From: an uncultured archaeon
Lineage (GTDB): Archaea; Asgardarchaeota; Lokiarchaeia; Sigyniarchaeales; SOKP01
Direction of reading: 5' to 3'
Assembly: GCA_964508365.1 (NCBI GenBank)
Contig: CAZDTP010000001.1
Span: 1-64,000, forward strand
DNA length: 64,000 nt
Positions 30,035-58,901 of this stretch are shown here, piece after piece. Position 1 is the stretch's first letter. Each line of letters opens with the position of its first letter. Below the pieces are notes generated by a model. That model was given only the letters and a program-made list of their open reading frames with translations, was not told the DNA's origin and made no database searches. The position numbers and the translations under genes are program-made.

Positions 30035-30087
30035 ATTTATATTTTTGAATTCATCATTTATCTAATATAAGGTAATAATTTGGTGTA

Positions 30088-30849
30088 ATTATCATTCTTG
30101 GATGGATTATTTTATTTAGTGTTTTAGGTAGTATTGGAGCTATTTCAGCAGCAGCTCTTTTTGTATTTTTAGTGGAAGAAGCTCAGAAATCGCTCGTTCC
30201 ATTATTGATCTCATTTGCTACTGGAACTTTACTCACAGCAGCGTTATTTGGATTAATACCTGAAGCAATAGAGAGTGCTGGGGGGGAACCCCATAATGTA
30301 ATGCCATTTGTTTTAGGGGGTATTCTTTTTTTCTTCTTCTTGGAAAAAATAATTATATGGCGAAATTGCACTGACGAGGAATGCGATGTTCACGCAGCAG
30401 CTGGACCTATTGTCTTGATTGGAGATGCTTTTCATAACTTTATAGATGGAATTGTCATTGCTGCTAGCTTTCTTACAAGCTTTACAGTTGGAATAGCAGT
30501 AGGTTTTGCTATAATTGCTCATGAAGTTCCACAGGAGACAGGGGATTTTGGAATCCTATTACACGGTGGTTTTTCAAAAAAGAAAGCTTTTTTTCTTAAC
30601 ACATTATCAAGCATAACAACAATTCCAGCAGCAATAGTTAGCTATTTCATTTTAGGAAAAATATCGTTTATCGTACCTTATGCCCTAGCAATTTCAGCAG
30701 CAAGTTTTTTATATATTGCTTTATCAGATTTAACACCTGAATTACATAAGAAGTGGGGGTTCAAGCACTCAGTAAGACAATTAATTTTAATCCTATTGGG
30801 GGTTACATTAATGATCTTAACCATGAGTGTCATGGGTCATAATCATTAG
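30088..30849 (+). CDS. ZIP-family metal transporter (start uncertain, non-canonical)
   Basis: GDAFHNFIDG, HEVPQE.GDFG motifs. The frame extends upstream of the GTG at 30172 through a full TM helix to an in-frame TAA at 30076-30078. Confidence 0.9.
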   Translation: MIILGWIILFSVLGSIGAISAAALFVFLVEEAQKSLVPLLISFATGTLLTAALFGLIPEAIESAGGEPHNVMPFVLGGILFFFFLEKIIIWRNCTDEECDVHAAAGPIVLIGDAFHNFIDGIVIAASFLTSFTVGIAVGFAIIAHEVPQETGDFGILLHGGFSKKKAFFLNTLSSITTIPAAIVSYFILGKISFIVPYALAISAASFLYIALSDLTPELHKKWGFKHSVRQLILILLGVTLMILTMSVMGHNH

Positions 30850-30878
30850 TTTATCAAAAACAAGTAATACTTCAATCT

Positions 30879-31307
30879 ATGCAAGATTTAGATTATACTG
30901 TTATTAAGTTTTTATATCGAAAGAGTATTCCTTTAAAAGTTGGAAAACTTGCTAAGGAACTCAGTATCCCTCACTCTACATTGGGAAGTTGCATTACGAG
31001 ATTAAAGACAAAAGGACTTGTAAAATACGAAGTTTACCGTGAAGTCGAATTAACTTCAAAGGGTAAAGATTTAGCAATTGAATTAATTAGGCACGCAAGA
31101 CTCTTGGAAATTTTTCTACATACCGAATTAGGTGTAAAACCAGAACTTGCTCATCGCGAAAGTGAAAAATTAAATCTACTTTTTTCATGTGAAACCATAA
31201 ATAAAATTTGTAAGAAATATAAACATCCAAAAAAATGTCCTTGTGGTGATGTGATCTTAAGTTCTAGTAGCTGCGTATGTGAAACTGAGATAAGAAATAG
31301 AATATAA
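30879..31307 (+). CDS. DtxR/MntR-family metal-dependent regulator
   Basis: wHTH, LT..G...A..L.RH.RL.E.FL, E.E.L and C-terminal CPCG motifs. Confidence 0.88.
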   Translation: MQDLDYTVIKFLYRKSIPLKVGKLAKELSIPHSTLGSCITRLKTKGLVKYEVYREVELTSKGKDLAIELIRHARLLEIFLHTELGVKPELAHRESEKLNLLFSCETINKICKKYKHPKKCPCGDVILSSSSCVCETEIRNRI

Positions 31308-31318
31308 GAATTTAACTA

Positions 31319-31804
31319 TTATATAATTTCGTTAGAAGCGTAAGCGGTTAAAATTTGACCAAAAAATAAGTGGTGGGAAGCCATATTTCCAGACTGACAT
31401 GAGTGAACAATTTTGCACTCATAAGCAAGTGAGCAATCTTTTATCGTAGGAACTTTCGTTCTTTTCCCTTCTATAGTTTCCAGTCCAGTTTCCTTAAATT
31501 TATCAACGCTTCTTCCTGAGAGCGAGCCAGTAATGTTTATTGTATCAGCAATTTTTTTAGAAGGAATATTTACTGTAAATTCCCGCACACCTTCAGTTAA
31601 CAACTTGAAAGTATAACGTGACGGCGCTACTGCTATAGTTATCACTGGGATCATCCAAAGCTCTCCAATTGTTTTCCATAGCAGAGCCATTACATTTATT
31701 TGTCCATCATTATCTATAGAAACTACATGAGCAGCTCTAGACATAAAGTAATCTATATATTCATATGGATCGATTTCTCTTCTTCCGTCATCCATTCCAT
31801 TCAT
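31319..31804 (-). CDS. Flavin reductase-like protein
   Basis: N.M, EFTVNIP, G..SG...DKF...GL, ECK, H.LFFG motifs. Confidence 0.88.
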   Translation of the reverse strand: MNGMDDGRREIDPYEYIDYFMSRAAHVVSIDNDGQINVMALLWKTIGELWMIPVITIAVAPSRYTFKLLTEGVREFTVNIPSKKIADTINITGSLSGRSVDKFKETGLETIEGKRTKVPTIKDCSLAYECKIVHSCQSGNMASHHLFFGQILTAYASNEII

Positions 31805-31835
31805 ATTCTAATATAAATATCGCAGTATATAAGAT

Positions 31836-32075
31836 TTAGGCTTTGAAAGGTATATCGTGAATAACTTTATCTATTGCATTTAAGCAAGCTTCCTCCCAGT
31901 CATCATTCGGGTCAATTTCTTTGGTACAGTCTGGACACCAATCGCCAGAATATCCGTCATCGAAATCATCTCTCTCTAAATCGCCATTTAAAATCCCACC
32001 GCAATAGAAGCATTCACCATCGTCGTATCTATCTAAAATTTCTGCTATTAACTCAACTTTTTTCCTATTGTTAAT
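31836..32075 (-). CDS. Small acidic zinc-finger protein, 79 aa (absent from ORF track; apparent ATT start)
   Basis: INNRKKVELIAEILDRYDDGECFYCGGILNGDLERDDFDDGYSGDWCPDCTKEIDPNDDWEEACLNAIDKVIHDIPFKA*. Has CxxC...CxxC; in-frame TGA lies just upstream. The + strand track ORF 31874..32074 is its shadow. Confidence 0.75.
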   Translation of the reverse strand: MNNRKKVELIAEILDRYDDGECFYCGGILNGDLERDDFDDGYSGDWCPDCTKEIDPNDDWEEACLNAIDKVIHDIPFKA

Positions 32076-32170
32076 TTTTCACACCTAATTCTCTATATTA
32101 AAATCTTTATTATAATATTAGTTCAAGATATAAAAAAAGTATAGGTGAAATTTTTATTAAGAAAATTGAA

Positions 32171-33205
32171 TTAAATTACCATCCTTGAAGCGTTGATTAA
32201 GGATTTTTCAGCGTTTTTTACCATGTTATCCATTATATCTTTAATGCTTTCAATAGAATTAATAATCCCAATACTTTGACCCAGTAATACTGCACCATCA
32301 TCGATATTTCCATTGTAAGTCATTTCATAGTGTTTTTGGTCCTCTAGAGCTTTTTCTGGAGTAAGTTGAGCTTCAAGAGCCATCTTTTCTTCTTTATTAG
32401 TTACTACTCCATGGTGAAGTGAGTATTTATTCCTCCAAAGTCTAATCGGTCCTAAAACGCCTGTAACCCAAATAGTGTCATTTGCTCTCGCGGCAGGTAT
32501 AATATTTTTATAATTTTCATGAAACTCACTCTCTTTTGAGGCTATAAATCTAGAACCCATCGCAATCCCTCCTGCTCCAAGTGATAAAGCTGCAGCCATC
32601 CCTTCTCCTGTAGCTATCCCTCCACAGGCTACTATAGGGAGATCAGGATGTTTTTGCTTTACTTGTTGTAACAAAACCAAAGAACTTATTTTTTCATATG
32701 ATTGATGACCTCCTCCTTCCCATCCTGTTACTACTACTCCATCACATCCAGCAACTACGCATTTGTCTGCTAACCATAGGGCAGGTGCTACATGAAAATG
32801 CTTTATATTTGATCCATTATCTCTTAGTTTTTGAAAAGCATTGTTATAAATCATCTTTGGAGTACCGGCGCTAGTGATTATGTAAAGACACTGTTCTTTG
32901 ATCCTTTGATTATTGTTAATGAACCTAGGAATAGCTCGACAAAGCCCTGGCGCATCAGGCTGCATTCTTGATGTTCTAATATTAAACCCGAAAGGTTTAT
33001 CTGTATGCTCGACCACATATTCCATATTTTTTTTCATTTCACTTAAACTACTCTTTCCAAATAAATTAGTATGACTTAATACTCCTAATCCCCCAGCTTC
33101 TGAAACAGCTACCGTTAATTCTGTTGTATAAAAGGGACCCATCGGAGCGGCTATGATAGGATGCTTAATCCCAAACATTTCTGTAATATTAGTCTTTAAA
33201 CCCAA
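32171..33205 (-). CDS. Nitronate monooxygenase/FabK-like flavin oxidoreductase
   Basis: GIKHPIIAAPM, VSEAGGLG, EGGGH, ACGGI, MGSRF motifs. Confidence 0.9.
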   Translation of the reverse strand: MGLKTNITEMFGIKHPIIAAPMGPFYTTELTVAVSEAGGLGVLSHTNLFGKSSLSEMKKNMEYVVEHTDKPFGFNIRTSRMQPDAPGLCRAIPRFINNNQRIKEQCLYIITSAGTPKMIYNNAFQKLRDNGSNIKHFHVAPALWLADKCVVAGCDGVVVTGWEGGGHQSYEKISSLVLLQQVKQKHPDLPIVACGGIATGEGMAAALSLGAGGIAMGSRFIASKESEFHENYKNIIPAARANDTIWVTGVLGPIRLWRNKYSLHHGVVTNKEEKMALEAQLTPEKALEDQKHYEMTYNGNIDDGAVLLGQSIGIINSIESIKDIMDNMVKNAEKSLINASRMVI

Positions 33206-33634
33206 TCTTTTTTCTCCTATAAATTGAAAATTTTCTTATGGAAGTAATATGATATGTATTAATTAATCTTTTTGAACCTTTAAATATGAAAAAATGAAAA
33301 TGTGATGGACAATTATGACTTTCTATACTAAAAAGCTAATTTTTTAAAACATTTTCTTTATTGCGGGAAGAATCCGAAAATACTATTGAAATATAAAATA
33401 ACAATTATAGATACAACAACGAAAACTATCGATAGAACATAAAACTTCTTTTCATTTTAGGACCTTTAATAGGATTTTTATCTCTGTGTTTAGTCCGTAA
33501 AGAATTTGATTTCGCAAATGTAGGTCAAGGTAAAAAATAAATATGCTTATAACTAAGACTTTTTTTGGTTGCACATAGTAATAAAAAGTGGCTATAAAAA
33601 TGTTTTTACTCTTCTAATTTCATCATCAATAACA

Positions 33635-33963
33635 TTAATGTCTTCTAAAGCTTTTTGGTGTAATTTGAACTTCATAAACCATTTTTTCTTCTTTACTAGA
33701 TACTACACCATAGTGTACAGAATAATTATTTCTCCAAAGTCTAATCGGTCCTAAAACGCCTGTAACCCAAATAATATCATTTGCGTCCATATTTGGAACG
33801 ATATTTTTGTAGTTTTCATGAAACTCGCTTTCTTTTGACACGTTGAATCTAAAACCCATTGCGATAGCTCCAGTTCTTAGTGATAAAGCCCCGCCCATCC
33901 CTTCCCTAGTAACAATTCCACCACAGGCTATTAAAGGGATATCAGTATATTTTTGCTTTATTT
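33635..33963 (-). pseudogene. Partial duplicate of the C-terminal part of the adjacent nitronate monooxygenase gene
   Basis: IKQKYTDIPLIACGGIVTREGMGGALSL...SEFHENYKNI...WVTGVLGPIRLWRN parallels 32341-32665 with near-identical nucleotide blocks. No N-terminus; frameshift at PKS/KALED. Confidence 0.85.
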
Positions 33964-34183
33964 AGCCAATTAGAATTTTTCAAACTTGAGATACGATTTT
34001 TAGCATGTTTAATTAATCTTATAGCCATTTTTATCCCCTGCTTCCATCTTCTCAAGATTTTGTTCTAGAAGTTAAATAACTATCGGTTTAGGGACTCGAT
34101 TCAAGGGACATAAAAAATGTTTAAAATATTAGATATATTATTTTAATGCAATTAAACAATGTAAAATAACTAATAAATTCAAA

Positions 34184-34831
34184 TTGTCATTTGATAATAA
34201 AAAAGTTAAGGATTTATTTGACGAATATTCAGAGAATCTTTCATTTTGGTATTTAGATGCATTATTTAGTCAAGCTACTGTAAATTCTCGATATAGAAAA
34301 AATGCAATCAAATTTTTAGATTTAACGCCAAATTCAAATATTATTGATATTGCATGTGGAACGGGATTTAATTTCAAGATCATAGAAAGTTATTTAAAAA
34401 ATAAAGGAACGCTTGTTGGATTAGATATTTCTCCGAAATCTCTTGAATACGCAAAAGGGAGAGTCATTAAAAATAATTGGACAAATATCAAATTAATATG
34501 TGCGAATATCGGCGATAATAATCCCGCTATTCAATTTGATGCAGCTCTTTGTACTTTTGCTATCTCTATAATCCCGGACTATATTGATACAATTGATACT
34601 ATTTATAATTTGCTTAAACCCAAAGGAAGAGTTGCCATCATTGGTATGAAACTTAGCTCTAAATATCCTTTTAAATTATTAAATTCCTTCATAGATAATT
34701 ATTATCTAAAATGGGGCATTAATGTCCATCGCCCAATTATTAAATACATTAAAACTAAATCATTCAAAATTGAATATTATAAGGATTGTCATTTTGGATT
34801 TGAATATATTCTTGGATTAAAAAAGATCTGA
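34184..34831 (+). CDS. Class I SAM-dependent methyltransferase (UbiE-like)
   Basis: IDIACGTG, GLDIS, FDAA, LLKPKGR motifs. Confidence 0.88.
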   Translation: MSFDNKKVKDLFDEYSENLSFWYLDALFSQATVNSRYRKNAIKFLDLTPNSNIIDIACGTGFNFKIIESYLKNKGTLVGLDISPKSLEYAKGRVIKNNWTNIKLICANIGDNNPAIQFDAALCTFAISIIPDYIDTIDTIYNLLKPKGRVAIIGMKLSSKYPFKLLNSFIDNYYLKWGINVHRPIIKYIKTKSFKIEYYKDCHFGFEYILGLKKI

Positions 34832-34893
34832 CTTCATACCAAATATTACTTCTTAGGCGTATTTGATTTTTATCAAAATGGGACGTTTTTGTT

Positions 34894-35328
34894 TTATATT
34901 ATTGGTTTATCTCTACAATACCCCATAACTAATAAAATGAAGATTATAGCACATCCAAGAAGTTCAAAAGCACCAATAGGTAGAAATAAAATAGTAAGGA
35001 TCATGGTAATGAGTAAACTACCCATTCCAATCCAAAATCCCCATAATAAATTTTTCATAAGCCCAATTGCAGAAACCGTTCTCATTATAGTAAAAGCCCA
35101 GAAAAGGGGTGCGAGAGATAAAGGTTGGGTCTCTAAAAGTTGTTGTATTATAGGGATACCCCATTCTAAGTAAAGATTGGGAATGATATTAAATGCAATT
35201 AGGATAATAGCTATGCTATCTGATATTTCTAGTAAGGAGTAGAGTAGCATTGAAATTGATGCTATATAAAGATACTTATTTTCTTTAATTTTATAGGTGT
35301 TTTTGGATTGTTCCATAGATATCTTCAA
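34894..35328 (-). CDS. Hypothetical membrane protein (~4 TM)
   Basis: Hydrophobic helices; co-oriented with the two methyltransferase genes. Confidence 0.7.
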   Translation of the reverse strand: MKISMEQSKNTYKIKENKYLYIASISMLLYSLLEISDSIAIILIAFNIIPNLYLEWGIPIIQQLLETQPLSLAPLFWAFTIMRTVSAIGLMKNLLWGFWIGMGSLLITMILTILFLPIGAFELLGCAIIFILLVMGYCRDKPII

Positions 35329-35345
35329 ATTATTTTAATTATTAT

Positions 35346-35906
35346 CTATTTTAATTTTGATGTCTTTATTAATTTCGGAAATAATGCTCCTGTTCTTTTC
35401 TGGTATTCCTTATATTTTTCACCGAATCGTTTAACAAGATCTATTTCTTCATAGTGAATCATAATGGGAGTATAAATTATGATAAATAATGAGGAAAGAA
35501 TTACCAAGAACCATGAATTAAACATAAAACTCATAGCAGTAAACATAGGAAACTCTCCAAGAGTTTGAGGATGTCTAATATAGTTATAAATTCCACTATA
35601 CATTTTTGTTTCTTTAGAAGGAGTTAGAGTTTCAGCTCCAGCATCCTTCATCCCCCTGATCAGAAGATATGACCCTGGTATCAATATACAGATTCCTATG
35701 ATTATCCCAATCCAGATATTTGAACTGATGATCCACTCATTTACAACAGGAAGAGGAAACCAAATCCAAATGATTAAATTTGCTATAGCAATAAATTCAG
35801 CTAATCCTCCAATTGAGCGGAATTTTTTACAATCTTTCCAAGCTTTGTCACCATATTTTTCTGAACGCTTCATAGGTTGGATACTGAGGGTGTAAAAATA
35901 GCCCAT
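35346..35906 (-). CDS. ICMT/PEMT-family membrane methyltransferase (N-terminus may extend to ~35960)
   Basis: SGIYNYIRHPQT.G and EE..L..RFG..Y.EY...T...FP motifs. Confidence 0.88.
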   Translation of the reverse strand: MGYFYTLSIQPMKRSEKYGDKAWKDCKKFRSIGGLAEFIAIANLIIWIWFPLPVVNEWIISSNIWIGIIIGICILIPGSYLLIRGMKDAGAETLTPSKETKMYSGIYNYIRHPQTLGEFPMFTAMSFMFNSWFLVILSSLFIIIYTPIMIHYEEIDLVKRFGEKYKEYQKRTGALFPKLIKTSKLK

Positions 35907-36071
35907 AACAAAAAATGTGCTTAGTAATAAAATAAAATTTATAATCGAGATTAGTATAAGAGTATTACACCTCTATCAACAATGAATATTATTAAACTGT
36001 AGAAATTAATGAATATATTTAACCTTATTGTAGTCTCTTGATAGACTTGAAATTAACATAATATTGACTAT

Positions 36072-36941
36072 CTATGCCATTCCAATAAAAAATTTAAAGA
36101 ATAATCCCCAATTTTTAGGGTGTACAAAAAAAGCAGGAGTTTTTTTTCTATATTCTGTGTAAGAATCTCCAAATCGATTGATTAATTCTTTTTCTTCTAC
36201 AAAATGAACATGAATATACATTCCAATGTATAAAATCAGAAAAAATATAATTGAATATAGAGTCAATTGGATAATCATTCCTCCAAAACAAAGAAATAAT
36301 ATTCCACTATATGTTGGGTGCCGCAATATTGAATATATCTTATGATCGTGCAATTCACTTTCTTCAGGAAAATAAAGATAAACGACAGTCATGTAGTCAA
36401 TACCAAAAGTTTCTATCGCTCTAAATATCATTACCACTCCCAAAACACATAAAAATCCTCCTAAAAAAAGGCGTATATATTCAAGAGTTGGAGCGATTGG
36501 AGTAATATATGATGTTAATGGAGTTATGAATACCCAGAAAGGGGATTGTGACCAGAAACTAAGATTCCATAAATAAAAAGGAATAAAATTATGTAGCAAA
36601 ATACTAAAAATGACGACGACACCTCCGAATCCCGCAAGAAATACTCTTTGATAGGATAATTGACCATATTTCGCTTTTAAACGATCCCGATGGTACCACA
36701 TTTGATATACTAAAAAAATCGCTAATGAAGCCATCAACATTACGCCTAAGATTGGAAAGGAGATACTTAAATATCCCAACATACCCTCAAAAGGAATTAC
36801 TGTTGGTAAAAGATCAAAATAGAGTTGGATAGTTAAACTAATGGTAAAAACGGAGATTATATATAACGGAAGCATAATTATCTTTTTACCTGAGAACTTT
36901 GGAATCTTTTCTCGAAACTTTTTTGCCCCTTTAATATTCAT
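36072..36941 (-). CDS. ICMT/PEMT-family membrane methyltransferase
   Basis: IYSILRHPTYSG, EEKELINRFGDSY.EY...TPAF motifs. Confidence 0.88.
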   Translation of the reverse strand: MNIKGAKKFREKIPKFSGKKIIMLPLYIISVFTISLTIQLYFDLLPTVIPFEGMLGYLSISFPILGVMLMASLAIFLVYQMWYHRDRLKAKYGQLSYQRVFLAGFGGVVVIFSILLHNFIPFYLWNLSFWSQSPFWVFITPLTSYITPIAPTLEYIRLFLGGFLCVLGVVMIFRAIETFGIDYMTVVYLYFPEESELHDHKIYSILRHPTYSGILFLCFGGMIIQLTLYSIIFFLILYIGMYIHVHFVEEKELINRFGDSYTEYRKKTPAFFVHPKNWGLFFKFFIGMA

Positions 36942-37230
36942 CTTGTTTAACCCATTTATTTTTTATTCAGTTCAATTTTTAAAATTGGTAGAAATTAGCT
37001 TGTAATTTTAAATTTATTTAAAATATGTATGATTAGTTTTTTAATAATCATTTTCCGGGCAACTTGTAGTTAATTATAGTACATCTGGCACGGTATTAAA
37101 AATTGTGTTTTATTCTAGGCATTTTGGTAATGTCTGTTTCAATAACCATTTTTCATCCCCTCACATTTATTTTAAATTATGTATTAATGATTGGTGCAAT
37201 TATACATTATAATCAACAAAAATAGAAATA

Positions 37231-38202
37231 GTGAATAAAACGAGTCCAGACATAATTAGTTTAGGTGAATTATTGGTCGAAATAATGCGCACGGAAATTG
37301 ATGTACCACACGGAAGAATTGGTTCTTATTACAAAGGTCCATTTCCTAGTGGAGCTCCAGCAATTTTCATAGATTCTGTAGCTCGGATGTCAGTACCATT
37401 TAAATTTTCAACAGGGTTTATAGGTGCAGTTGGAAATGATGAGTTTGGTGAAACTATAATTGAGAAAATAAAAAATGACAATGTTGATGTATCCAAAATA
37501 AAAGTGAATGAAAACAGACCCACGGGAATTGCGTTTAATCAATATAATTCTGATGGTTCTCGAAAATTTATTTTTTCTGCAGGTGCTGCGGGACAAATAT
37601 CTCCTGAGGATCTTGAAAAAGATTATTTTTCGAATATTAAAGCTCTTCACATTATGGGAAGTTCCCTTTCAATAAGTGAGAGTTCCCGAAAATCGTGTTA
37701 TAAAGCAGTAGAAATTGCAAACTCAATAAATCCGCAAGTAGTTATCTCATTTGATCCAAATTTAAGACCAGAAATGCTAGATATAAAGACGATAATAGAA
37801 ATATCTAAACCAGTATTAGACAGGACTACTATATTATTCCCAAGTGGAGAAGAAGCAGAAATGTTAGCTGGAATCAAGGGAGAAGTAAATGCATGTAAGG
37901 AATTAATAAAGAAAGGTTTAAAACTAGTCGTTTTGAAACAAGGAAAAGAAGGGTGTACTATATTTTCTTCTGGATTAGCAGACGATATAAGGGTTCCAGG
38001 ATTTAAAGTTGAGGAAACAGACCCTACTGGAGCGGGTGATTCTTTTGATGGAGCTTTTATTGTTGGTTATTTAGCAGGATGGGATTTAAAAAGAGTTGGA
38101 ATGTTTGCAAATGCCGCTGGAGCTCTGAAAGTTCAGTTTTTTGGTCCGATGCCAAATACTTCTTATAATGAAGTAATAAATTTAACAAAAAAAAAGAAGT
38201 AG
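37231..38202 (+). CDS. PfkB-family carbohydrate kinase
   Basis: GELLVE, PSGAP, G.VG.DEFG, DPNLR, DPTGAGDSF motifs. Confidence 0.93.
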   Translation: MNKTSPDIISLGELLVEIMRTEIDVPHGRIGSYYKGPFPSGAPAIFIDSVARMSVPFKFSTGFIGAVGNDEFGETIIEKIKNDNVDVSKIKVNENRPTGIAFNQYNSDGSRKFIFSAGAAGQISPEDLEKDYFSNIKALHIMGSSLSISESSRKSCYKAVEIANSINPQVVISFDPNLRPEMLDIKTIIEISKPVLDRTTILFPSGEEAEMLAGIKGEVNACKELIKKGLKLVVLKQGKEGCTIFSSGLADDIRVPGFKVEETDPTGAGDSFDGAFIVGYLAGWDLKRVGMFANAAGALKVQFFGPMPNTSYNEVINLTKKKK

Positions 38203-38218
38203 TTTTCCTTAACTAACT

Positions 38219-40204: not shown

Positions 40205-40317
40205 TGCACAAAACTTCGATGAAATTAACTTAATAATTATTAATTGATTTCTTTTATTAAAATAATTTAGTTAGAATAATTTTTATATAACAATTTCTTG
40301 AAGCATGTGTTCTTATA

Positions 40318-41796: not shown

Positions 41797-42223
41797 TTTT
41801 ATTCAATCCAATGCAATAATGGAATTGCCAAGCATTATAGAATAAAAATCCCCTGAGCTTTCTAAAGTCGCAATTACCATATTGATTAATAGATATTACT
41901 CTAATTGGGCTACAATTTGTTAAATTCTACTATTAAATGGTAGTATCAATTTTTAATCTTTCTATAGATTCCCTTATATAAACTTATTGCTTGAAATAGA
42001 GACGAAATACCTCTAAGAGAAAATAAACTCAAAAGTTTAAATATTTATAATGAGTATATTTTATAAAGAATTAAGTAAGTTGTAGAAAATGAATATTTAT
42101 TTACAACATTTTGTTGAACAAAAGAAACCCAATTTTTTGTATTGTAATAAATATTAAATTATAGATTCCCAATTCTTCTTTTATTAAATGATATTCTAAA
42201 AAATCTTAAAATAAAACTATAAT

Positions 42224-45608: not shown

Positions 45609-45659
45609 TCCGCTGAGAATTATAATTTTTATATAACGGTCTGATATTGTTTTAAGAAA

Positions 45660-46394: not shown

Positions 46395-46413
46395 GTAAAA
46401 TTAAATTGAGTTA

Positions 46414-46806: not shown

Positions 46807-47023
46807 GATTTATATTACCTAAATTAAGCTAGTAATACTTCAACCTAAATGAATATAAAGTTCTACAAAAAATATTCTATACCTAAAAAAGAATTAGAAT
46901 TTACCTTTATAAAGAAACTGTTAATTTTAGATATTTCTGTCAAAATTATATCTAAACAGGGCAAACATGATAACAAAAACCAAATAAAATATATTTTTAT
47001 TTTTAAAAATGCTTCATATTTAT

Positions 47024-47779: not shown

Positions 47780-47802
47780 AATATTAGTATCATTAAAAAT
47801 AG

Positions 47803-49722: not shown

Positions 49723-49927
49723 TCTATAATTCAGATAATAATTATGATAGACTCGGTTAAAATTGATACTGAAAAAATAAAACACTTCATATTTAGCACA
49801 GGCAGATTACCTGAAAGAAGTTTTTAAAAGAAAACTTAAATATAGAGATGACATAATTAAGCATTAGAAAAAAATCACCCAAGAATCAAATTGATAAAAA
49901 AATAATAAAAATAAGAGAAAACAAAAA

Positions 49928-50311
49928 ATGAAAGATATAGCTGTTATTTTGGAAAATCGTCCCGGTGCACTAGCTGATATGGGGGAAATTCTAGGCAAAA
50001 ACGGTATAAATATGGAAGGTTTATGTGGAATTCCGTTAAAAGATAAGGCAATTATACATATATTAGTTGAAGAAGAAACTGTTGCACGCTCTATACTTGA
50101 AGAAGCAGGATTTGAGATTAGTGGTGTTCGTGAAGTTATCGTTCAAGACATTGGTCATATAGCGGGAAAGCCAGGGACAGGAGGGAAAATGGCTCGCAAG
50201 ATAGGTAATTTAGGTGTGAATATTGACTTGATCTATTTTGCTGAGAATAATAAAATAGTTATCGGAGTTGACAACATCGAAAGAGCTAACACAGCACTTG
50301 CAAAACAATAA
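49928..50311 (+). CDS. Tandem ACT-domain protein
   Basis: LENRPGALA...L...GINM and KPG....L....VNID..Y repeats. Confidence 0.88.
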   Translation: MKDIAVILENRPGALADMGEILGKNGINMEGLCGIPLKDKAIIHILVEEETVARSILEEAGFEISGVREVIVQDIGHIAGKPGTGGKMARKIGNLGVNIDLIYFAENNKIVIGVDNIERANTALAKQ

Positions 50312-50370
50312 AGAAGTTAGATGAGATTATGTCTAAATCTTTTGTTTAAATATGACAAATAATTAGATAT

Positions 50371-52032
50371 CTATTTTATAATTCCATAGATATGTTTATC
50401 TCTGTCGTGTTCTTTAAGAAGTTTCCGGCCTTCCTTATTTGAGAGAGAAAGCGTTATATTGCTTGATCGACTCAATGATCCTGTAAAAACTTCCTGATCA
50501 TCTGCAAACACAATAATATTACTACTAGCGTATACTGGATCTGCATTTATTATTATCTTTTGCTTACTAACTTTGATATCTAGCTCAATTTTTATATCTT
50601 TTTTTTTTTTACTCAAAAACTCTTTTTTAAAGTGCTCCTCACGCATAAAAGAGTCCTTAGGTTCTATAGGGTTAATTGGATTAATGACTATATCTTGACC
50701 AAAAGAATAAATCTCATATGAAAGACGAGTCGTTCTAAAATCTCTAACTTCAACAACGGGTCGTGCCAAATCTTTGTCTCTAAATCCATGAGGCACTTTA
50801 ACTGTCATTTTTATAATCAAAACAGTAGAGATATCCCCTCCTTCAATAAATACGATTGTATCAATAATTGATGGAAGCATACCAAGCTCTATGCGACCAA
50901 TAAAACGCTGTATTGCGTCAATAGCCGATGAAGAATGAACTACTCCGACCATACCAACTCCAGATAAACGAAAATCAGCGTAGATCTGAAAATCTTTTGT
51001 AGTGCGTACTTCGTCAAAAATTGTGAAATCTGGTCGAACGAGGAGTAAAATATCAGCTGAATTTTCAAGACTTCCCTCCAATTTGGTATATTGCGTAATT
51101 TCGGGTTTAACTTGTAAATCTCGGACGCTTTCTAGTGTTTTCACAACTTTTCCTTGTTCTAAATAATAATTTGCTAAAGCTGCTGAGAAAGTACTCTTAC
51201 CTGCACCAGGAGCGCCAGCTACTAAAATACCTTCTGCTTTTTGTAATCTATTATTTAATTTTGCATCAATCGAATAGTCCTTCAATGAAAGCGTAACAAG
51301 TGGATGTACAGCAGTTATTTCAACATCATTTGAAAAAGGAGGTCTAGTTATTACTATTCTAAATTCTCTCAACTGGGCAACTAAAGCACCATTTTTCTCA
51401 ATTTCAACAAACGAGTGATCGTCTTCCCTAACCATCTCTATTATTTCGATTGCTATTTCTTCAACATCTTTGGCAGATAATGGATTATCGCCAATTTTCT
51501 CTAAATACCAGCTTCCTGGGCTACCTTTTTTGGCATAAGGAGGTAATCCTTGCTTTAAATGCACACTCATTGTGGTTTCATCAAAATATTTTAACAATTT
51601 AAGAGAAGAAAGGTCAAATTCTTTTGGAAAGGCTTTTTCCTTTACATACATTATTTGTATTCCTTCAAAAATTCCTACATCTCCTTGAATTCTATCAGCT
51701 GTAATTAAAGTTGCGCCATATTCTAAAGCAGATTTTCTAATAAGCGCATCAAGTTCTCCTCCAGGACTCATTTTAATTTCTTCTCTTGTAGGTCTTTTGC
51801 CCACAATATTAAGCGTAATTTTCTCTTCTTGATGCAATTTTCGTAATTCTTTTAATACATTTAAACCATATGCCCCTATTTCTTTTTGAACATTTGTGCG
51901 AAATTCCACTTCCGCTATGACGACTTCTGAAATGAAAACTTCTGGTTTTTCCCCCAATTCTCCATCTGTAATTAAATTTAAGACGAGACCATTAAATATA
52001 ACAGAAGTATCACACGCGTATTTGTTTGACAT
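50371..52032 (-). CDS. PIN-domain/ATPase protein (archaeal PINA family)
   Basis: DTSV PIN motif, GAPGAGKST Walker A, DEVR Walker B, RPDF.IFDE, A.DAIQRFI.R.ELG. Confidence 0.92.
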   Translation of the reverse strand: MSNKYACDTSVIFNGLVLNLITDGELGEKPEVFISEVVIAEVEFRTNVQKEIGAYGLNVLKELRKLHQEEKITLNIVGKRPTREEIKMSPGGELDALIRKSALEYGATLITADRIQGDVGIFEGIQIMYVKEKAFPKEFDLSSLKLLKYFDETTMSVHLKQGLPPYAKKGSPGSWYLEKIGDNPLSAKDVEEIAIEIIEMVREDDHSFVEIEKNGALVAQLREFRIVITRPPFSNDVEITAVHPLVTLSLKDYSIDAKLNNRLQKAEGILVAGAPGAGKSTFSAALANYYLEQGKVVKTLESVRDLQVKPEITQYTKLEGSLENSADILLLVRPDFTIFDEVRTTKDFQIYADFRLSGVGMVGVVHSSSAIDAIQRFIGRIELGMLPSIIDTIVFIEGGDISTVLIIKMTVKVPHGFRDKDLARPVVEVRDFRTTRLSYEIYSFGQDIVINPINPIEPKDSFMREEHFKKEFLSKKKKDIKIELDIKVSKQKIIINADPVYASSNIIVFADDQEVFTGSLSRSSNITLSLSNKEGRKLLKEHDRDKHIYGIIK

Positions 52033-52033
52033 T

Positions 52034-52639
52034 TCAGTCTTCGTTTTTCTCTACTTTATTAATAATTTCAAATTTATTCACGCTATAATATATTGGCTTA
52101 CTTAGCCTATCGACGGTAGCTACAATAAGATCCTTTCGAGAGCTCATAGCCACGCGAGACATTTTATCCAATTCCCTTAAATCTATAGGATAACCCTCAA
52201 ATACGGGATATATCAAGAATTTAGCGGAATCTTTTTCAAAATCAGCCCCACGTTTATACACCAAAAAATCTATCCCTTCTCCATATCCATTTCTTACGAT
52301 ATATCCTCTTTTTCGCAAATCCATATAAATAATGTACTTTCGCCATAAATTATCATCATATTCCGTGAAATATGTTAGTAAACCCTCAAAATCGTATAGA
52401 TCATTATTCTTATCATTATTTTTGTACAATAAAATCCGATTTCGTTCACATAATAACAGAACTTCTAAAGGCCCTAAAACTAAAATTTCTCCACCCTCGC
52501 TATTCTTTTCAAGCGTGCCAATATATGAATTTCTATAAAACTCTTCAATACAATCTTTGTCAGTAATAATAACTTTTCCTTGGTTAATTACTCCCTCGAA
52601 CTGTACTTTTTCGACCTTTTCATTTGGAGTTTCATTCAT
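52034..52639 (-). CDS. endA: tRNA-intron endonuclease-family subunit
   Basis: L.L.P.E.L.L, Y.DLRKRGY.V, DF.VY, SRK.L motifs; the catalytic His position appears to be Ser. Confidence 0.82.
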   Translation of the reverse strand: MNETPNEKVEKVQFEGVINQGKVIITDKDCIEEFYRNSYIGTLEKNSEGGEILVLGPLEVLLLCERNRILLYKNNDKNNDLYDFEGLLTYFTEYDDNLWRKYIIYMDLRKRGYIVRNGYGEGIDFLVYKRGADFEKDSAKFLIYPVFEGYPIDLRELDKMSRVAMSSRKDLIVATVDRLSKPIYYSVNKFEIINKVEKNED

Positions 52640-52730
52640 ATTCTATTATAACCTAGCAGTTAATAATTAATGAATTTAACGCATTAAATGAAATAAACTT
52701 CAATTATTGATGTAAGATTTATTGAATAAA

Positions 52731-53612
52731 TCATTCAGTAGAATTTATTAGAAATTCTACTAAATTTCCAAGTTTCTTAACATTAGAATAGATTTTGGGA
52801 GCATTTTCTTCCAAGTATGGTTTAAAAACTTCCCAATTTTCTCGTTTTACGAGAGGAGTCCTAGATAATAGATTTCTTACTTCGTTAAAATCGTTAGTGA
52901 AAATTAGTGCGTTATCAGTTTTATTTGCTTTATCGCTTAGAAGAAATAAGTAATAGTCGTTAAGCTCCTGAGGGTTCATGACATTTGGAGGTTTTTTTCC
53001 ATCTCCTGCCTTACTTCCTCTCAGCATACGTGTATCTACTTGAGTAGGTAGAACCATGTTAAAATTAATATTTTCTTTTTTATATTCTAATGCTAATGCA
53101 TTTTGTAAGCCTACTACGGCATATTTACTTGCGGTGTAGGCAGCAAGCTTTGGCATAGGATTCGTAAACGCTGCACTTCCAGTGATAATGAATCTTGATT
53201 TATTATTCTTATCATCTTTCTTAAGATAAGGATAAGCTGCTTTAAAAGCAAAAAATACACCTGATACATTAATAGTCAGTATCTCAGAAAATTTATTACT
53301 ATCAAATTCATGGCTATCCCACATCCTCGAATATCCTGCGTTAGCAATTACTCCATTAAATTCTCCTAAATCCTTATGAAATACCTTAAATGCGTCTTCA
53401 ATTTCTTCATATTTAGTCACATCTGAGGTTTTAACTGATACCTTTACTCCAGTTCCTAAATTAATAATCTCATCTTTAACTTCATTTAATTCATCAATAG
53501 TTCTTGCAGTAAGACCAAGGTTTGCACCTTCTTTTGCACAAGCGATAGCTACAGATTTTCCTATACCTCTTCCCGATCCTGTGATTACTATGGTTTTCCC
53601 TTTTAATAACAT
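52731..53612 (-). CDS. Short-chain dehydrogenase/reductase
   Basis: TGSGRGIG, NAG, YTASK motifs. Confidence 0.92.
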   Translation of the reverse strand: MLLKGKTIVITGSGRGIGKSVAIACAKEGANLGLTARTIDELNEVKDEIINLGTGVKVSVKTSDVTKYEEIEDAFKVFHKDLGEFNGVIANAGYSRMWDSHEFDSNKFSEILTINVSGVFFAFKAAYPYLKKDDKNNKSRFIITGSAAFTNPMPKLAAYTASKYAVVGLQNALALEYKKENINFNMVLPTQVDTRMLRGSKAGDGKKPPNVMNPQELNDYYLFLLSDKANKTDNALIFTNDFNEVRNLLSRTPLVKRENWEVFKPYLEENAPKIYSNVKKLGNLVEFLINSTE

Positions 53613-53721
53613 AATAAAAAAATAGAAGAGTAAAAAAAAAAATTAACTAAAATTTATTCTTATATTTTTTTTTATAGAAATGCAAAAATTAATGTTCAGT
53701 TATACAATTTATCACCTAGCC

Positions 53722-54291
53722 ATGGAAAATTTATATGAAAAACTCTTGAAAAGACTTAAAGGCGTTAAAAACATAGTTTTTATGGGGATTGGAGAGGAGA
53801 AATTAAGCGATGACGGCGTTGGACCCTATATTATCAGTGAACTTTTAGATTATTCAAGCAAAAAAATTCTATTCATAAACGCTGGAACAGATCCCATGGC
53901 TCGAATTGATGATGTCGTAACTTTTAAACCAACTTATCTAATCCTTATAGACACCTGTACTGTAAATAAGCCCCCTGGAATGGTTACGATATTGGAACGT
54001 GAAAGCATTAAGGAATATGTGCCAATATCTACACATACTATTCCTGTACACGTAGTAATTGATTTAATTGTTGAAAAATTACCAGAATTAAATATCTTTA
54101 TGATTGGATTTGTTCCGGAAAGTCTTGAGGGTTTTAAAGAGTTAAAACTATACAAACAAGATGATTTGACTCTCGAGGAGCGATCAAATAACATTGATCT
54201 ACCTTTTTTTGAAATAAATCTAACTAAAACATTAAAAACTGAAGCAGATAAACTAATAGAAATAATTAAGAAATTAATTGACTCCATTTAA
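53722..54291 (+). CDS. Hydrogenase maturation protease (HycI-like)
   Basis: GIGE....DDGVG, ILID, STH motifs; ATG at 53722 (MENL) preferred. Confidence 0.82.
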   Translation: MENLYEKLLKRLKGVKNIVFMGIGEEKLSDDGVGPYIISELLDYSSKKILFINAGTDPMARIDDVVTFKPTYLILIDTCTVNKPPGMVTILERESIKEYVPISTHTIPVHVVIDLIVEKLPELNIFMIGFVPESLEGFKELKLYKQDDLTLEERSNNIDLPFFEINLTKTLKTEADKLIEIIKKLIDSI

Positions 54292-54306
54292 GGTTTGAGT
54301 ATCATT

Positions 54307-54489
54307 CTAAGATTCTTTAGTGTAATGGTTTACGATAATATTTATTGTATTTGAAAAAATTTGTTTTTCCTCGTCATTTAGTTCTTTTTTTAATCTTTCA
54401 AGAAACTTTATAACCTTGTCAGCTTCTCTTATGTTTCTCACATGATCAGAACCCTCTTTATTTAACGAGCCACCCCATGCCATTATCAT
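54307..54489 (-). CDS. Small hypothetical protein
   Basis: 60-aa ORF 20 nt downstream of the flavoprotein gene on the same strand; charged helical composition. Confidence 0.5.
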   Translation of the reverse strand: MIMAWGGSLNKEGSDHVRNIREADKVIKFLERLKKELNDEEKQIFSNTINIIVNHYTKES

Positions 54490-54509
54490 ACCTTCTAAAT
54501 CTATATTTT

Positions 54510-55901
54510 TTATTTATTTGGATCTTCAGTTACCTTCAAGAATGGGCGGAGAAATTCTTGCTTCATGTTGATTTTATTCCTAACCTTATCTATTCTCATT
54601 AATGGAATCAATTTTTCGTTCAATTTTTTTGCGCGTTCGTCATTTTGCGGGAAAGTGTCATAAAATCCATGTTTTTCGTAGTATTCGTGATCGGCTAGAA
54701 ATACAAATCGATTTCTTCCATAGATATCATCTCGAAATATTTTTTTACCTCCTTCTCCTAAAAAAGTTATTGGTTTTATGTAATCTGCTTTGGAAAATGT
54801 AACTAATCTCCTAGCAAAATCGAGCAGTAAGGCATCTATGTCTTCTGATGTTCCAAATTCATCAGTAATAATGTCTACAAAATTTGAGTCTTGAATTTCT
54901 ACATGAGCTTGAAACATTTGAGCAAGATTTGGAATTTGATTAAAAGGGCCAGAAATAATGTAACCCATCTGTTTTCCTATTAGAGTTGGTGTATGAGTCA
55001 TATAGAAAGCCCGATCTTGAACCATCTTCCATCTTGATGAAAGATATCTATCTTTAATTACGCCAGCAAAAACAAGAATATCCGAAGTCATAACTACATT
55101 TTCCCAGAATTCGATAAAACCATCCTTTCCCAAATAGGAACATTTATGATCGTAACCACATTGTAGACATGAGATACATCCCCCTTTAATATCGATATCA
55201 TATAAATTTATGATTTCAATCTCGCTTGAAAAAGAGTCTTTAAACCTTTTAATCATTTTTCCTAAATTGGAGTTTTCGTTAGTCTCATCACTAAGAATAA
55301 GAATTTTTTTACCATGCGTATCGATTTTCTTTGAATCATCTAATATTTTGCCAGGAGTATATTTAAAGTCTCTCATATTTAAAGGAGCGTAGTGTTTTGA
55401 AGTAGGATATTTATTTTCAACATGTTTTATAAATTCCTCAACGAATAAAAGCCATCCTGCTCGTCGTTTGGGGTAAAGAAGATCCCAACTGTCTGCAGAA
55501 TAATAACCCACATACTTCATTTTAAGGTCATCACAGATACTATTCATATAATTCTGGGCAGTATGATCGTAGAAATGAATAGAGGTTGATAAGACAAAAG
55601 TATATTTATTTTCGAATGCGGTTTCAGAATTTCTTTCGAAAATTAATTCAATAAACCGCTTATATTGGGAGCAAACTAGCATTACATATAAGGGAAAACC
55701 CCATATTACACCGTCTGATTCTTTTACCTGAAGGATAATGTCTTCGAATCTCTTTTCGTCATTTTCAATCTTTTTAATTGTTTGTGCGATGTTTATTATA
55801 TTATATTCATGTTCCGGATGTTTTTTCTTAATGTATAAAATGTATTGCATGGTTACAGATTCTCTCCCCTTTGGCGAACCGTTGAGTATTATGAACTTCA
55901 T
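54510..55901 (-). CDS. Tandem flavodoxin-fold NAD(P)H-dependent / iron-sulfur flavoprotein
   Basis: LNGSPKG..S.T, P.Y...V..Q.K.FIE; second domain carries CISCLQC.....C. Confidence 0.85.
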   Translation of the reverse strand: MKFIILNGSPKGRESVTMQYILYIKKKHPEHEYNIINIAQTIKKIENDEKRFEDIILQVKESDGVIWGFPLYVMLVCSQYKRFIELIFERNSETAFENKYTFVLSTSIHFYDHTAQNYMNSICDDLKMKYVGYYSADSWDLLYPKRRAGWLLFVEEFIKHVENKYPTSKHYAPLNMRDFKYTPGKILDDSKKIDTHGKKILILSDETNENSNLGKMIKRFKDSFSSEIEIINLYDIDIKGGCISCLQCGYDHKCSYLGKDGFIEFWENVVMTSDILVFAGVIKDRYLSSRWKMVQDRAFYMTHTPTLIGKQMGYIISGPFNQIPNLAQMFQAHVEIQDSNFVDIITDEFGTSEDIDALLLDFARRLVTFSKADYIKPITFLGEGGKKIFRDDIYGRNRFVFLADHEYYEKHGFYDTFPQNDERAKKLNEKLIPLMRIDKVRNKINMKQEFLRPFLKVTEDPNK

Positions 55902-56202
55902 AGTTTTTTAATCGTTCTCAAGTATTTTTATTTTTAATCTCCATATGTTTGGAAATTAAAATTCTGTTTTAAAAATTATCATTAAGTATTTTAAAAATCA
56001 ATTTAAATTTTGGTTGCTTGTAGATTTTTAAAACGATTCCCATTTATAGTTTAAAATTTAAAATTTCACTATTCTTAAATTTTAACTCGAAGGTCATTTT
56101 TTAAATTGAATTAAAATTTGAATGTACCGTTAATATCGATGGAAAATTTCAGAATTTACTTTATCTTCCGATAAAGAAATAATCTATTTGAATGAAAAAA
56201 AG

Positions 56203-56928
56203 TTATTTTTTATTAAGAAATATTTTTTTGACTATCTTAGGTAAGATAAACCCAATATAGAATTCTATTGCGCTTGAAATTAAGATAATCCTCGCTATCG
56301 TAAGAGTGACTATATTTAAAGGTAGAGCGGCATCCATTACTGCACCAATGGCCCATGAAACAAATGCAACTGTCAGAAATTTACCTTTAAGAGTTATTTC
56401 TGAATCTTCTGATTTCATGGATTCACGACCAAAAAATAATCCCGTAACTAAAACAGTTAAAACAATAAATATGGCCCAAAGTAACACTACTCCTCTATAA
56501 GTCACATCTAAATCTCCAGAAAGGCTTCCAATAACAGTTGGATCAATAGTAAGGAAATAAACGAAATATATCTCAAACATTAACCCAACTATTATATATA
56601 TTATCATCAATAGTTTTTTTCTATTCTGGAATTTAAATTCCGTAAAGGAATATATCCAGATTACTAAAATTAAAGGAGATGCGATATTTCCGATTGCAAA
56701 ATAGGTAACTGAATCAATTCCAGTAGTCGTGATAAGATATTTCAAAAATGATACCGTGCTAGGAAGCCAGGGTGTTGTTAAACCAATCCAAGTTATTCCG
56801 ATCAATAAATAGGTCACATTTCGGAACTGGCGATATTTTGATGCAATAGTAATTCCTACTATCATTGATATAAGCACAAAAATGAGGCTAAAACTACCAT
56901 TTAAAATTTCTAAAGGTTCAAGACTCAT
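56203..56928 (-). CDS. 7-TM membrane protein of unknown function
   Basis: Seven hydrophobic segments counted by eye; no soluble domain. Confidence 0.75.
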   Translation of the reverse strand: MSLEPLEILNGSFSLIFVLISMIVGITIASKYRQFRNVTYLLIGITWIGLTTPWLPSTVSFLKYLITTTGIDSVTYFAIGNIASPLILVIWIYSFTEFKFQNRKKLLMIIYIIVGLMFEIYFVYFLTIDPTVIGSLSGDLDVTYRGVVLLWAIFIVLTVLVTGLFFGRESMKSEDSEITLKGKFLTVAFVSWAIGAVMDAALPLNIVTLTIARIILISSAIEFYIGFILPKIVKKIFLNKK

Positions 56929-57102
56929 TCTACATCATAATTTGTTATAATTATTCATTAAAAGTTAGAATTACTAACATAATAAAATTAAGAGTATAAA
57001 AGCTTCATTAAAATGTTTTCTAGACAAATGAATTGTTTATGAACTTATAATATAACTCTTATCGCTATAGATTTTAATTTTTGTTTTATTATACTTTAAT
57101 GT

Positions 57103-58329
57103 CTAATTTATTAGGTTCCATGAGGAAACTAAGATAATTAACGCTAGGATTGCAATACAACATAATCCAATCCAAGATAATAAAGCATTTTTTACATAGT
57201 TAATTTTGAACTTGACCGCTTCATGGGGACATAATTCTACGCAACAGAAACAAGTAATACACTTATTCTTATCCCATTTTGGAATATTTCCTTTTTTTAT
57301 CTCATCAGGCGGTGTAATCGCATTAACTGGGCAATTAGTCCAGCAAGTAGAACACAACTTGCATTTCTCTTTATTGAACTTTACTGAGGCTTTAAATATT
57401 GTTTTTCCAATATAATTTGCCAACCATTTTGGTAAAGGCATTGATATTGGTCGAAGTTTTGGGCGTTTAAATTGTCGAAAAACAGATTCAATAGGCTCTC
57501 CGAGAAATTCTACGCTTTCTAAGTCAGTAGTTCCCAATTTCTTTTTTTCAGCTTTTTCTAAATACAATATTTCTTCTGGTTCAAATCCAATTATTTTACA
57601 CACTGCAGTATCAAGAGCAACGCCATCATATCCGGCTAAAATTATATCTAATTTAATCACATCGCCGCTAGAGGGACCTTGGCCTTCTTGACAGTAGTAC
57701 CCATCTATAACCGTTAATTGCGGTTTAGATATTGAATATATATCTACTAATGCCGAACAAAATCGCTCCAAGATTGCTGCTTGAGCATGGGTTTTAGCTT
57801 TATTTGCCAGAAGCACGGTCCCAAACATATTTTTAATACAGCATGTTAAGGTGCATTGCGAGTGGGTTTTAATTTTAGGAATGTTAATGATCAAATCTGC
57901 TTCTTTAATCAAAAGAGAACTCGATATCTCTTTCAATTCGAAAGGATCTTTGACTTCATAAATTACACGCTCAGTTTTTTCAAAAGGTATACAGATTGCT
58001 CCTTCTTCTTCGCAAATATCCTGGATACCACTTTCTTTCATGGCTGTTTCTGTAATCCCGGGTTTTTGACCCCCAGCAGAATCACTTACGTAAATTTTTG
58101 ATGGATTGAATTTTTTTACCCATTGAATCACAGCCCGAACAACTTCTGGATGAGTATTAACTGCTCTCTCAGCTGGTTTACCCATTAAGATATTCGGTTT
58201 TAATAGCACTACCATATTATCTTTTTGCATTAGTTGTTGAGCATTAATAAGTTCAAGTGCTGAAAAAACAGATGATTTTACATCCTCATTTTTAATTTTC
58301 TGAATAGCTACTTTGGTTATATAACCCAT
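57103..58329 (-). CDS. DUF362-domain protein with 2x[4Fe-4S] ferredoxin domain
   Basis: LKPN, T.PE, INIPK.KTH, T..IKN.FG, CKLCSTCWTNCP and CITCFCCVELCP motifs. Confidence 0.9.
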   Translation of the reverse strand: MGYITKVAIQKIKNEDVKSSVFSALELINAQQLMQKDNMVVLLKPNILMGKPAERAVNTHPEVVRAVIQWVKKFNPSKIYVSDSAGGQKPGITETAMKESGIQDICEEEGAICIPFEKTERVIYEVKDPFELKEISSSLLIKEADLIINIPKIKTHSQCTLTCCIKNMFGTVLLANKAKTHAQAAILERFCSALVDIYSISKPQLTVIDGYYCQEGQGPSSGDVIKLDIILAGYDGVALDTAVCKIIGFEPEEILYLEKAEKKKLGTTDLESVEFLGEPIESVFRQFKRPKLRPISMPLPKWLANYIGKTIFKASVKFNKEKCKLCSTCWTNCPVNAITPPDEIKKGNIPKWDKNKCITCFCCVELCPHEAVKFKINYVKNALLSWIGLCCIAILALIILVSSWNLIN

Positions 58330-58408
58330 AATTAGTATTCATTTGTAGAAAGTTAAAAGATTTAGCAAAATAAAATAGAAAGAGAAAAAAATATTTAAAA
58401 CTTATATT

Positions 58409-58660
58409 TTATCCGCCAGCCTGCGTAGCCATTACGGTAATTACATCCTTTTTTGGATGAATTCCTATTTTAGCGAACTTTAACTGGTCAGGAAGTACTT
58501 TTCCTTTAAAGATAAATTGAATAGCAAGAATAGGATTAAGTTTATATTCCCGTTGAACCGTTTTTTTAATTTCTGCTATAGATTGGTTTGGATCTACTTC
58601 AATTAATTTAATAGCCTGATCTGGTGGAACACCAGTTAATCTAAAGCGATATTGGGTCGT
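58409..58660 (-). CDS. Ubiquitin-like (beta-grasp) protein ending in GG, ~83 aa (absent from ORF track; non-canonical start)
   Basis: TTQYRFRLTGVPPDQAIKLIEVDPNQSIAEIKKTVQREYKLNPILAIQFIFKGKVLPDQLKFAKIGIHPKKDVITVMATQAGG*. Has ubiquitin-like I..IK, IF.GK.L.D and C-terminal GG. Confidence 0.88.
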   Translation of the reverse strand, partial: TTQYRFRLTGVPPDQAIKLIEVDPNQSIAEIKKTVQREYKLNPILAIQFIFKGKVLPDQLKFAKIGIHPKKDVITVMATQAGG

Positions 58661-58901
58661 GAGTTTTTCACATCCTTTTTAGTTGTATTTTTTTTTACAT
58701 TATTTAAATTATTACTATAATAATGTGAAAATTTTTAATTAAAAACAAAGGTATTTTTGATTAAATTGAAGTTTAGTTGGTTAAGAATGTATTTTTAGAT
58801 AAAACAAGGTCCAGATTCATAATTCCTTAAAGTCAATCTACCTAAAACTAAAGTATAAGTATAACCAAAAGTATAAATTTCTAAATATCTTTTTAATATT
58901 T

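Follow-up and report, generated by a model that had tools for sequence, protein, structure and literature searches.

Probable near-cognate start codons behind Shine-Dalgarno motifs in a Lokiarchaeial genome, and the conserved AUU start of its aIF1 gene

Background

How is translation begun on genes whose reading frame, behind a recognizable ribosome-binding motif, offers no ATG, GTG or TTG? The question arises from a stretch of 64,000 nucleotides (nt) of an uncultured archaeon (Asgardarchaeota; Lokiarchaeia; Sigyniarchaeales; SOKP01), positions 1 to 64,000 of contig CAZDTP010000001.1 in assembly GCA_964508365.1, which is called the window below. An earlier note on this DNA had singled out four of its genes, for a ZIP zinc transporter, a zinc-ribbon microprotein, an ICMT-like membrane methyltransferase and a ubiquitin-like protein, as having an in-frame stop, a Shine-Dalgarno (SD)-like motif and then a non-canonical opening on ATT, ATC, CTT or ACG, and had proposed that the lineage tolerates near-cognate start codons. 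Direct reading of the sequence bears out this anatomy, as well as the canonical gene given for comparison (Table 1), and the proposed tolerance is upheld by the ATG and TTG columns of orthologues, by a codon enrichment in the SD register and by Pfam domains that open upstream of the first canonical codon. On these three counts the four window sites are taken, with a probability of roughly 0.85, to be genuine SD-directed translation starts, of a kind common in the genus.

The source is a metagenome-assembled genome (MAG; G000 where genomes are compared below) of 4.07 Mb and 31.8% GC in 149 contigs, with an estimated completeness of 100% and contamination of 3.65%. NCBI lists its relatives as MAGs of Promethearchaeota (formerly Lokiarchaeota) archaea.

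Probable start sites of the four window genes

The 5' end of each window gene was aligned with those of up to 40 relatives, 24 from the same genus and the remainder drawn from other families in the order. All four genes show an upstream in-frame stop, a piece of the SD sequence, and then no ATG, GTG or TTG before the conserved N-terminus; they are four of the six credible SD-led genes in the window.

Past its GGTG core the frame of the ZIP gene runs through ATT 30088, ATC 30091 and ATT 30094. No canonical codon comes before GTG 30172, which lies within the conserved first membrane helix, and a start there would delete that helix. The column of ATT 30094 holds ATG in two orthologues (G007 and G027) and ATT or ATA in about ten members of the genus; in the orthologue of G017 a TAG lies two codons upstream, so the start is there confined to this column. 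On this alignment ATT 30094 is most likely the start, with ATC 30091 and ATT 30088 less likely. Two genomes, G015 and G014, have GTT in the column (L039/L040). The zinc-ribbon gene has no ATG, GTG or TTG anywhere in its 79-codon frame. Orthologues are present in 22 of the 24 same-genus genomes searched, and their start column reads ATG in 14, ATT, as here, in six and CTA in one (G012, L076). GTT and CTA each differ from AUG at two positions, and across G000 neither shows enrichment.

The ubiquitin-like frame reaches its first canonical codon only at codon 76 of 83, and the first beta-strand of the protein begins two codons after the ACG. Among 31 orthologues the start column is mostly ATG, with ACG in four (G014, G015, G011 and G002) and ATT in G019. 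The C-terminus is GG right before the stop (58409-58417, minus strand), so that C-terminal processing would not be needed for the protein of this genome; several relatives carry one extra residue (S, I or Y) past the GG.

Past the SD of the ICMT-like gene lie ACT, then CTT (35960-35958), 7 nt after the motif, then ATA, whose 10 nt is the upper edge of the SD spacing range. The stop-to-stop frame has its first ATG 22 codons in, downstream of a conserved helix. The closest orthologues have TTG at the CTT, while others have ATG at the ATA or one codon later. The earlier note had read CTT as the start codon here; genome-wide, that codon is found four times in register against 16 times in background, and it is likely not the start. 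Because ATA is enriched across the genome and CTT is not, ATA is the likelier of the two. The family is highly multiplied (this genome has seven matches, and relatives have as many as 11), and two of its genes stand in tandem on the minus strand (35346-35972 and 36072-36962).

Table 1. Features of the four genes and of the canonical comparator, in window positions
Feature	Position	Strand	Remarks
Canonical comparator	24885-24900	+	AGGTGA, 7 nt, ATG 24898
ZIP, SD core GGTG	30082-30085	+	In-frame stop TAA 30076-30078; motif kept in orthologues
ZIP, start-stop pair GTG-TAA	30083-30088	+	Inside or just after SD
ZIP zinc-transporter gene	30094-30849	+	Pfam Zip 2e-32; ATT 30094-30096 most likely start, 8 nt after GGTG
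Zinc-ribbon, leader	32079-32085	-	GGTG 32085-32082 and in-frame TGA 32081-32079, then AAA, then ATT
Zinc-ribbon, start-stop pair GTG-TGA	32084-32079	-	Inside or just after SD
Zinc-ribbon (CxxC...CxxC) gene, 79 codons	31836-32075	-	Putative start ATT 32075-32073; no Pfam family
ICMT-like, SD GAGGTG	35968-35973	-	Overlaps in-frame TAG 35975-35973
ICMT-like, start-stop pair GTG-TAA	35970-35965	-	Inside or just after SD
PEMT/ICMT-like membrane methyltransferase gene	35346-35957	-	Pfam PEMT 7e-10; ATA 35957-35955 likeliest start
Ubiquitin-like, SD-like GGATGTG	58669-58675	-	One mismatch to GGAGGTG; stop TAA 58681-58679
Ubiquitin-like, start-stop pair ATG-TGA	58673-58668	-	Inside or just after SD
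Ubiquitin-like gene, 83 codons	58409-58660	-	Putative start ACG 58660-58658, 8 nt after SD; Pfam ubiquitin 6e-10

Genome-wide register of near-cognate codons

Upstream of ATG starts throughout the genome the share of G climbs from 9% to 29% at positions -14 to -8, and the words enriched there, including GGTGT, GGATG and GATGT, are pieces of AGGAGGTGAT. Motifs of the GGTG type are scarce in a genome of 32% GC, yet they are 15-20 fold enriched at -16 to -4 of ATG starts. Only about a quarter of the genes have an SD-type motif; reviews on Lokiarchaea say only that SD sequences are rare. The 16S rRNA gene is absent from this assembly and its tail was taken instead from genus members, in two of which the 3' end is GGATCACCTCCT, the standard archaeal anti-SD. 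The SD motifs are complementary to this tail, and the spacing is 6-8 nt for canonical and near-cognate starts alike. Contexts were then collected in which an SD motif is followed by a frame that has a stop no more than 24 nt upstream and runs on for 80 codons or more. There are 602 of these: 341 have an ATG (242), TTG (72) or GTG (27) at 2-13 nt past the motif, in keeping with the remark of the earlier note that TTG and GTG starts are frequent, and 261 have none.

In these 261 contexts an in-frame ATT, ATA, ATC, ACG or CTG is found in 43% at 6 nt and in 37% at 7 nt past the SD, over a background for the same codons of about 10% (at 1-2 and 10-21 nt). Pooled over 5-8 nt, near-cognates number 105 of 353 against 115 of 1044, an odds ratio of 3.4 (p = 2e-15). 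Codon by codon the enrichment holds for ATT (p = 3e-6), ATA (3.5e-5), ACG (1e-3) and ATC (0.012); CTG, CTT, GTT and CTA are not significantly enriched in the SD register of this genome. The spacing profile is that of ATG, TTG and GTG starts, control motifs (the reverse complements, and unrelated GC 4-mers) give a flat one, and SD motifs stand at the opening of 92 open reading frames (ORFs) without an early canonical start, where about 32 are expected. Within the motif-selected set SD strength is equal for near-cognate and ATG starts. The signal is strongest in ORFs of at least 150 codons (41%), and those below 80 codons show no enrichment above noise. After chance is subtracted, these figures imply near-cognate starts in about 65-100 genes, or about 16-20% of SD-led starts.

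Ten of the near-cognate candidates were tested against Pfam. In six the Pfam model opens before the first canonical codon: the PheT B1 domain, a RagA-like GTPase, a GPN-loop GTPase, a Ras-family GTPase, a GFO/IDH/MocA oxidoreductase and an aminotransferase. For Kae1 the Pfam model itself begins just after the first canonical codon, with a conserved N-terminal motif 5' of that codon, which brings the candidates with conserved upstream sequence to seven of the ten; two others gave no decision. Candidates were also compared with 0.8 Mb from a complete genome of another family; those with a match had ATG, TTG or GTG at or beside the same column there, or a near-cognate again.

These features suggest an ordinary route to the start. 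Pieces of AGGAGGTGAT in the mRNA would pair with the standard 16S tail and so place the P site 6-8 nt downstream, where the normal initiator tRNA (anticodon CAU) would be taken on AUU, AUA or AUC with a third-base mismatch, or on ACG with a second-base one; CUG, a first-base mismatch, is not significantly enriched and may perhaps rarely be accepted. The outcome would be full-length proteins, with near-cognates and ATG interchanging freely between species. That Met-tRNAi decodes these codons, and how efficiently, we infer. A pattern search returned one initiator-like tRNA candidate, which has a CAT anticodon and, as is typical of initiators, a GGG/CCC stem. The tRNA set given by Aragorn, with introns on or off, is incomplete, and an Rfam scan of the 64-kb window gave no match.

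Alternative explanations

Ribosomes might instead start on a canonical codon within the SD region, stop immediately and restart a few bases downstream on any codon. A canonical codon paired with a stop does lie at all four window sites (Table 1) and in the leader of the aIF1 gene discussed below (TTG-TGA), and genome-wide such pairs go with 12.7% of the near-cognate candidates but with 6.7% of canonical SD-led starts. This excess is marginal (p = 0.055), however, and 87% of the candidates lack a pair; the GTG is plainly part of the SD core, and the enrichment is specific to near-cognates, not to any codon. Among ubiquitin-like orthologues, moreover, the distance from the pair to the ACG differs (7 vs 6 nt), while that from SD to start stays normal. 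Reinitiation of this sort is judged unlikely. So, a little more so, is the proposal that the true start is the next downstream ATG, GTG or TTG, the protein being shorter and the upstream frame an untranslated leader. It may hold singly, as for the ICMT-like gene with its internal ATG or for an FAD oxidoreductase on contig 44, which has an ATG just before its domain, but it cannot serve the zinc-ribbon frame, where there is no canonical codon at all, and would leave the ubiquitin-like protein with the last few codons of its frame. In the ZIP transporter, PheT, the GTPases and the Rossmann enzyme it would remove conserved helices, P-loops or domain starts, and orthologues with ATG in the column in question show protein-level conservation of the upstream residues.

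Errors of assembly or sequencing, or decaying pseudogenes, could be suspected in a MAG of 149 contigs with 3.65% estimated contamination. Sister genomes, to which the earlier note looked for signs of such errors, do have ATG at many of these positions, but the ACG is found in five independent genomes, the zinc-ribbon ATT in seven and the ATT or ATA of the ZIP gene in about ten, and ATT or ATC opens aIF1 in 67 independent assemblies. Since the odd codons recur in this way, in proteins that are 90-100% conserved, assembly error and decay can be excluded but for a very slight chance; the enrichment is, besides, specific to codon and register. Scarcely credible is a variant code, or read-through of the in-frame stop from a canonical codon further upstream. 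Some public gene calls of relatives do read TGA as Trp and give proteins with M-W N-termini, but TAA, TAG and TGA all occur alike between SD and start, long genes have no internal stops, at three of the four window sites no canonical codon stands in frame before the stop, and in orthologues the ATG lies downstream of it.

Several observations nevertheless count against near-cognate initiation, or against its extent. Chance alone would account for about 55 of the 121 listed candidates, and the contig 44 FAD oxidoreductase, one of the ten tested against Pfam, is probably a false positive that uses its downstream ATG. For the ICMT-like gene the choice of start codon is ambiguous, and this copy could be N-terminally shortened and start at the internal ATG. 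The GTT and CTA columns of the ZIP and zinc-ribbon genes are left without explanation by near-cognate decoding as we picture it. In Staphylococcus aureus near-cognate starts have only about 10% efficiency (PMC13009471), and if this holds here "tolerated" may mean used for low expression. The whole case is, finally, built on MAG sequence.

The start codon of aIF1

In archaea wrong start codons are rejected by aIF1, a homologue of eIF1. The single aIF1/SUI1 gene of this genome (contig 25) itself reaches its zinc knuckle without a canonical codon. Counted from the GTG of the leader motif, an ATT follows after 10 nt, and the protein read from this ATT can be aligned with M. jannaschii aIF1 (4MO0) from residue 3 onward. 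The start column is ATT in all 18 genomes of the genus that have the gene; among 67 species-level related genomes it is ATT in 64, ATC in three and canonical in none. The three codons before the start vary and are often stops, while an 11-nt motif upstream is nearly invariant; the leader has an invariant imperfect SD and an in-frame TTG-TGA pair (L116 1411-1416). This weak start is thus kept more strictly than those of the ubiquitin-like, ZIP and zinc-ribbon genes, whose starts alternate between ATG and near-cognates from one genus member to another. In other Asgard families aIF1 begins with ATA, CTG, GTG, TTG or ATG, according to family. In three genus members (G005 contig 22, G008 contig 3 and G002 contig 84) aIF1 and the 16S rRNA gene share a contig, about 9-16 kb apart.

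The aIF1 pattern would fit a factor that limits its own synthesis, as for infC or eIF1: translated from a conserved AUU, aIF1 might settle, by negative feedback, at a level that still leaves near-cognate initiation appreciable. It is possible, though we hold it to be less than an even chance, that Lokiarchaeia and several other Asgard families have a deliberately relaxed start regime, set by feedback through aIF1's own AUU, AUA or CUG start. If so, the aIF1 loop would be the archaeal counterpart of the poor-context loop of eIF1 and the circuit would predate eukaryotes; a sizeable share of Asgard proteins, small GTPases and the ubiquitin-like protein among them, would be N-terminally mis-annotated. 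The idea of a crippled aIF1 was dropped, the basic loop being intact. The aIF1 of Sulfolobus rejects AUU in vitro (PMC4705826).

The share of near-cognates at 5-8 nt was compared in genomes that differ in their aIF1 start. It is 30% in G000 (ATT), 21% in G032 (TTG) and 16% in G077 (ATG), over backgrounds of 10-13%; the order is as expected, in three genomes of differing GC of which two were covered over 0.8 Mb. With its ATG aIF1, G077 is still weakly enriched (16% vs 9.6%, p = 0.008), and G032 has seven of 21 at 6-7 nt against a background of 13%, which over the pooled 5-8 nt comes to 10 of 47 vs 18 of 136 (p = 0.14). In these three genomes the feedback idea has no clean correlation behind it. 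The distance from upstream stop to first canonical codon was also considered as a count, but it is nearly identical in G000 and G032 and confounded by overlapping genes and gene fragments, and was left unused.

Relation to known start-codon exceptions

AUU is the start codon of infC and pcnB in Escherichia coli. Start-site mapping in S. aureus gave four such genes, infC (AUA), cvfC1 (AUU), ccpN (AUA) and citZ (AUA) (PMC13009471). The starts described here resemble these SD-directed bacterial ones in having AUU or AUA at the usual distance from a strong or extended SD, in being kept between species, and in the third-base mismatch with an ordinary initiator tRNA. They differ in their scale (some 65-100 genes in a single genome, where the S. 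aureus mapping gave four), in including housekeeping genes such as PheT, Kae1 and the GTPases, in the use of ACG, and in the archaeal machinery (aIF1, aIF1A, aIF2) that would be involved; they are, besides, predicted from sequence. What is seen here is a large-scale archaeal form of a known exception, whose frequency in this lineage was not found described in the literature.

For aIF1 the parallels are IF3, from the AUU of infC, and eIF1, whose autoregulation works through an AUG in poor context, according to Ivanov et al. 2010 as cited in PMC6237735. In each a fidelity factor is made from a poor start that is more strictly conserved than the starts of other genes. The archaeal case differs in consisting of a sequence pattern, and in a leader with an invariant imperfect SD and a start-stop pair. 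No feedback test of aIF1 in any archaeon was found in the literature, nor did a search on start codons of Asgard archaea and Lokiarchaea, aIF1 autoregulation and archaeal near-cognate starts yield a description of what is reported here.

Eukaryotes are reported to initiate on CUG, ACG and GUG under the control of eIF1, eIF5 and 5MP (PMC5714202, PMC13754004). By analogy, both systems would use non-AUG codons that include ACG, at a rate set by a factor of the eIF1 family. In eukaryotes, however, the site is found by scanning and Kozak context and AUU and AUA are poorly used, whereas here it would be fixed by the SD and the third-position mismatches AUU and AUA dominate. The findings thus bear on how start-codon stringency evolved from archaea to eukaryotes, and the conserved AUU of aIF1 offers a directly testable feedback circuit.

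Consequences for gene annotation

NCBI translation table 11 permits ATT, ATC, ATA and CTG as initiators, treated as rare exceptions; it covers the codons seen here except ACG. Existing gene calls handle these leaders in various ways. For aIF1, NCBI records of relatives place a Met at the ATT, JGI and ENA calls are shortened to 70-84 residues, and callers that read TGA as Trp produce an M-W N-terminus. Public calls on short metagenome contigs (P0001, P0005 and P0121) appear to follow this reading, with M-W N-termini that start at an ATG, GTG or TTG embedded in the SD, a second kind of mis-annotation arising from these leaders. The ubiquitin-like protein of a near relative is annotated with a spurious 23-residue extension through the SD, and no public call for the window's own ubiquitin-like gene is among the matches listed. 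In general, JGI, ENA and Prodigal-type calls shorten or extend proteins with near-cognate starts.

The earlier note had expected many small proteins to be hidden from standard annotation. Near-cognate starts are hidden from Prodigal-type callers, but the NCBI pipeline calls some of them (aIF1 as M-KDDD), and as to small proteins there are two conserved examples in the window, while "many" is not borne out by the ORFs below 80 codons, which lack a signal above noise. The eukaryote-like proteins of Asgard archaea have been mined from calls that admit ATG, GTG and TTG only, and should every fifth or sixth SD-led gene depart from these, wrong N-termini and missed short genes would follow.

Neighboring features of the window

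Between the zinc-ribbon and ICMT-like genes, a 108-codon frame (33635-33961, minus strand) closely resembles the C-terminal third of the neighboring 354-codon gene (32171-33235, minus strand), and looks like a truncated tandem duplicate or a pseudogene.

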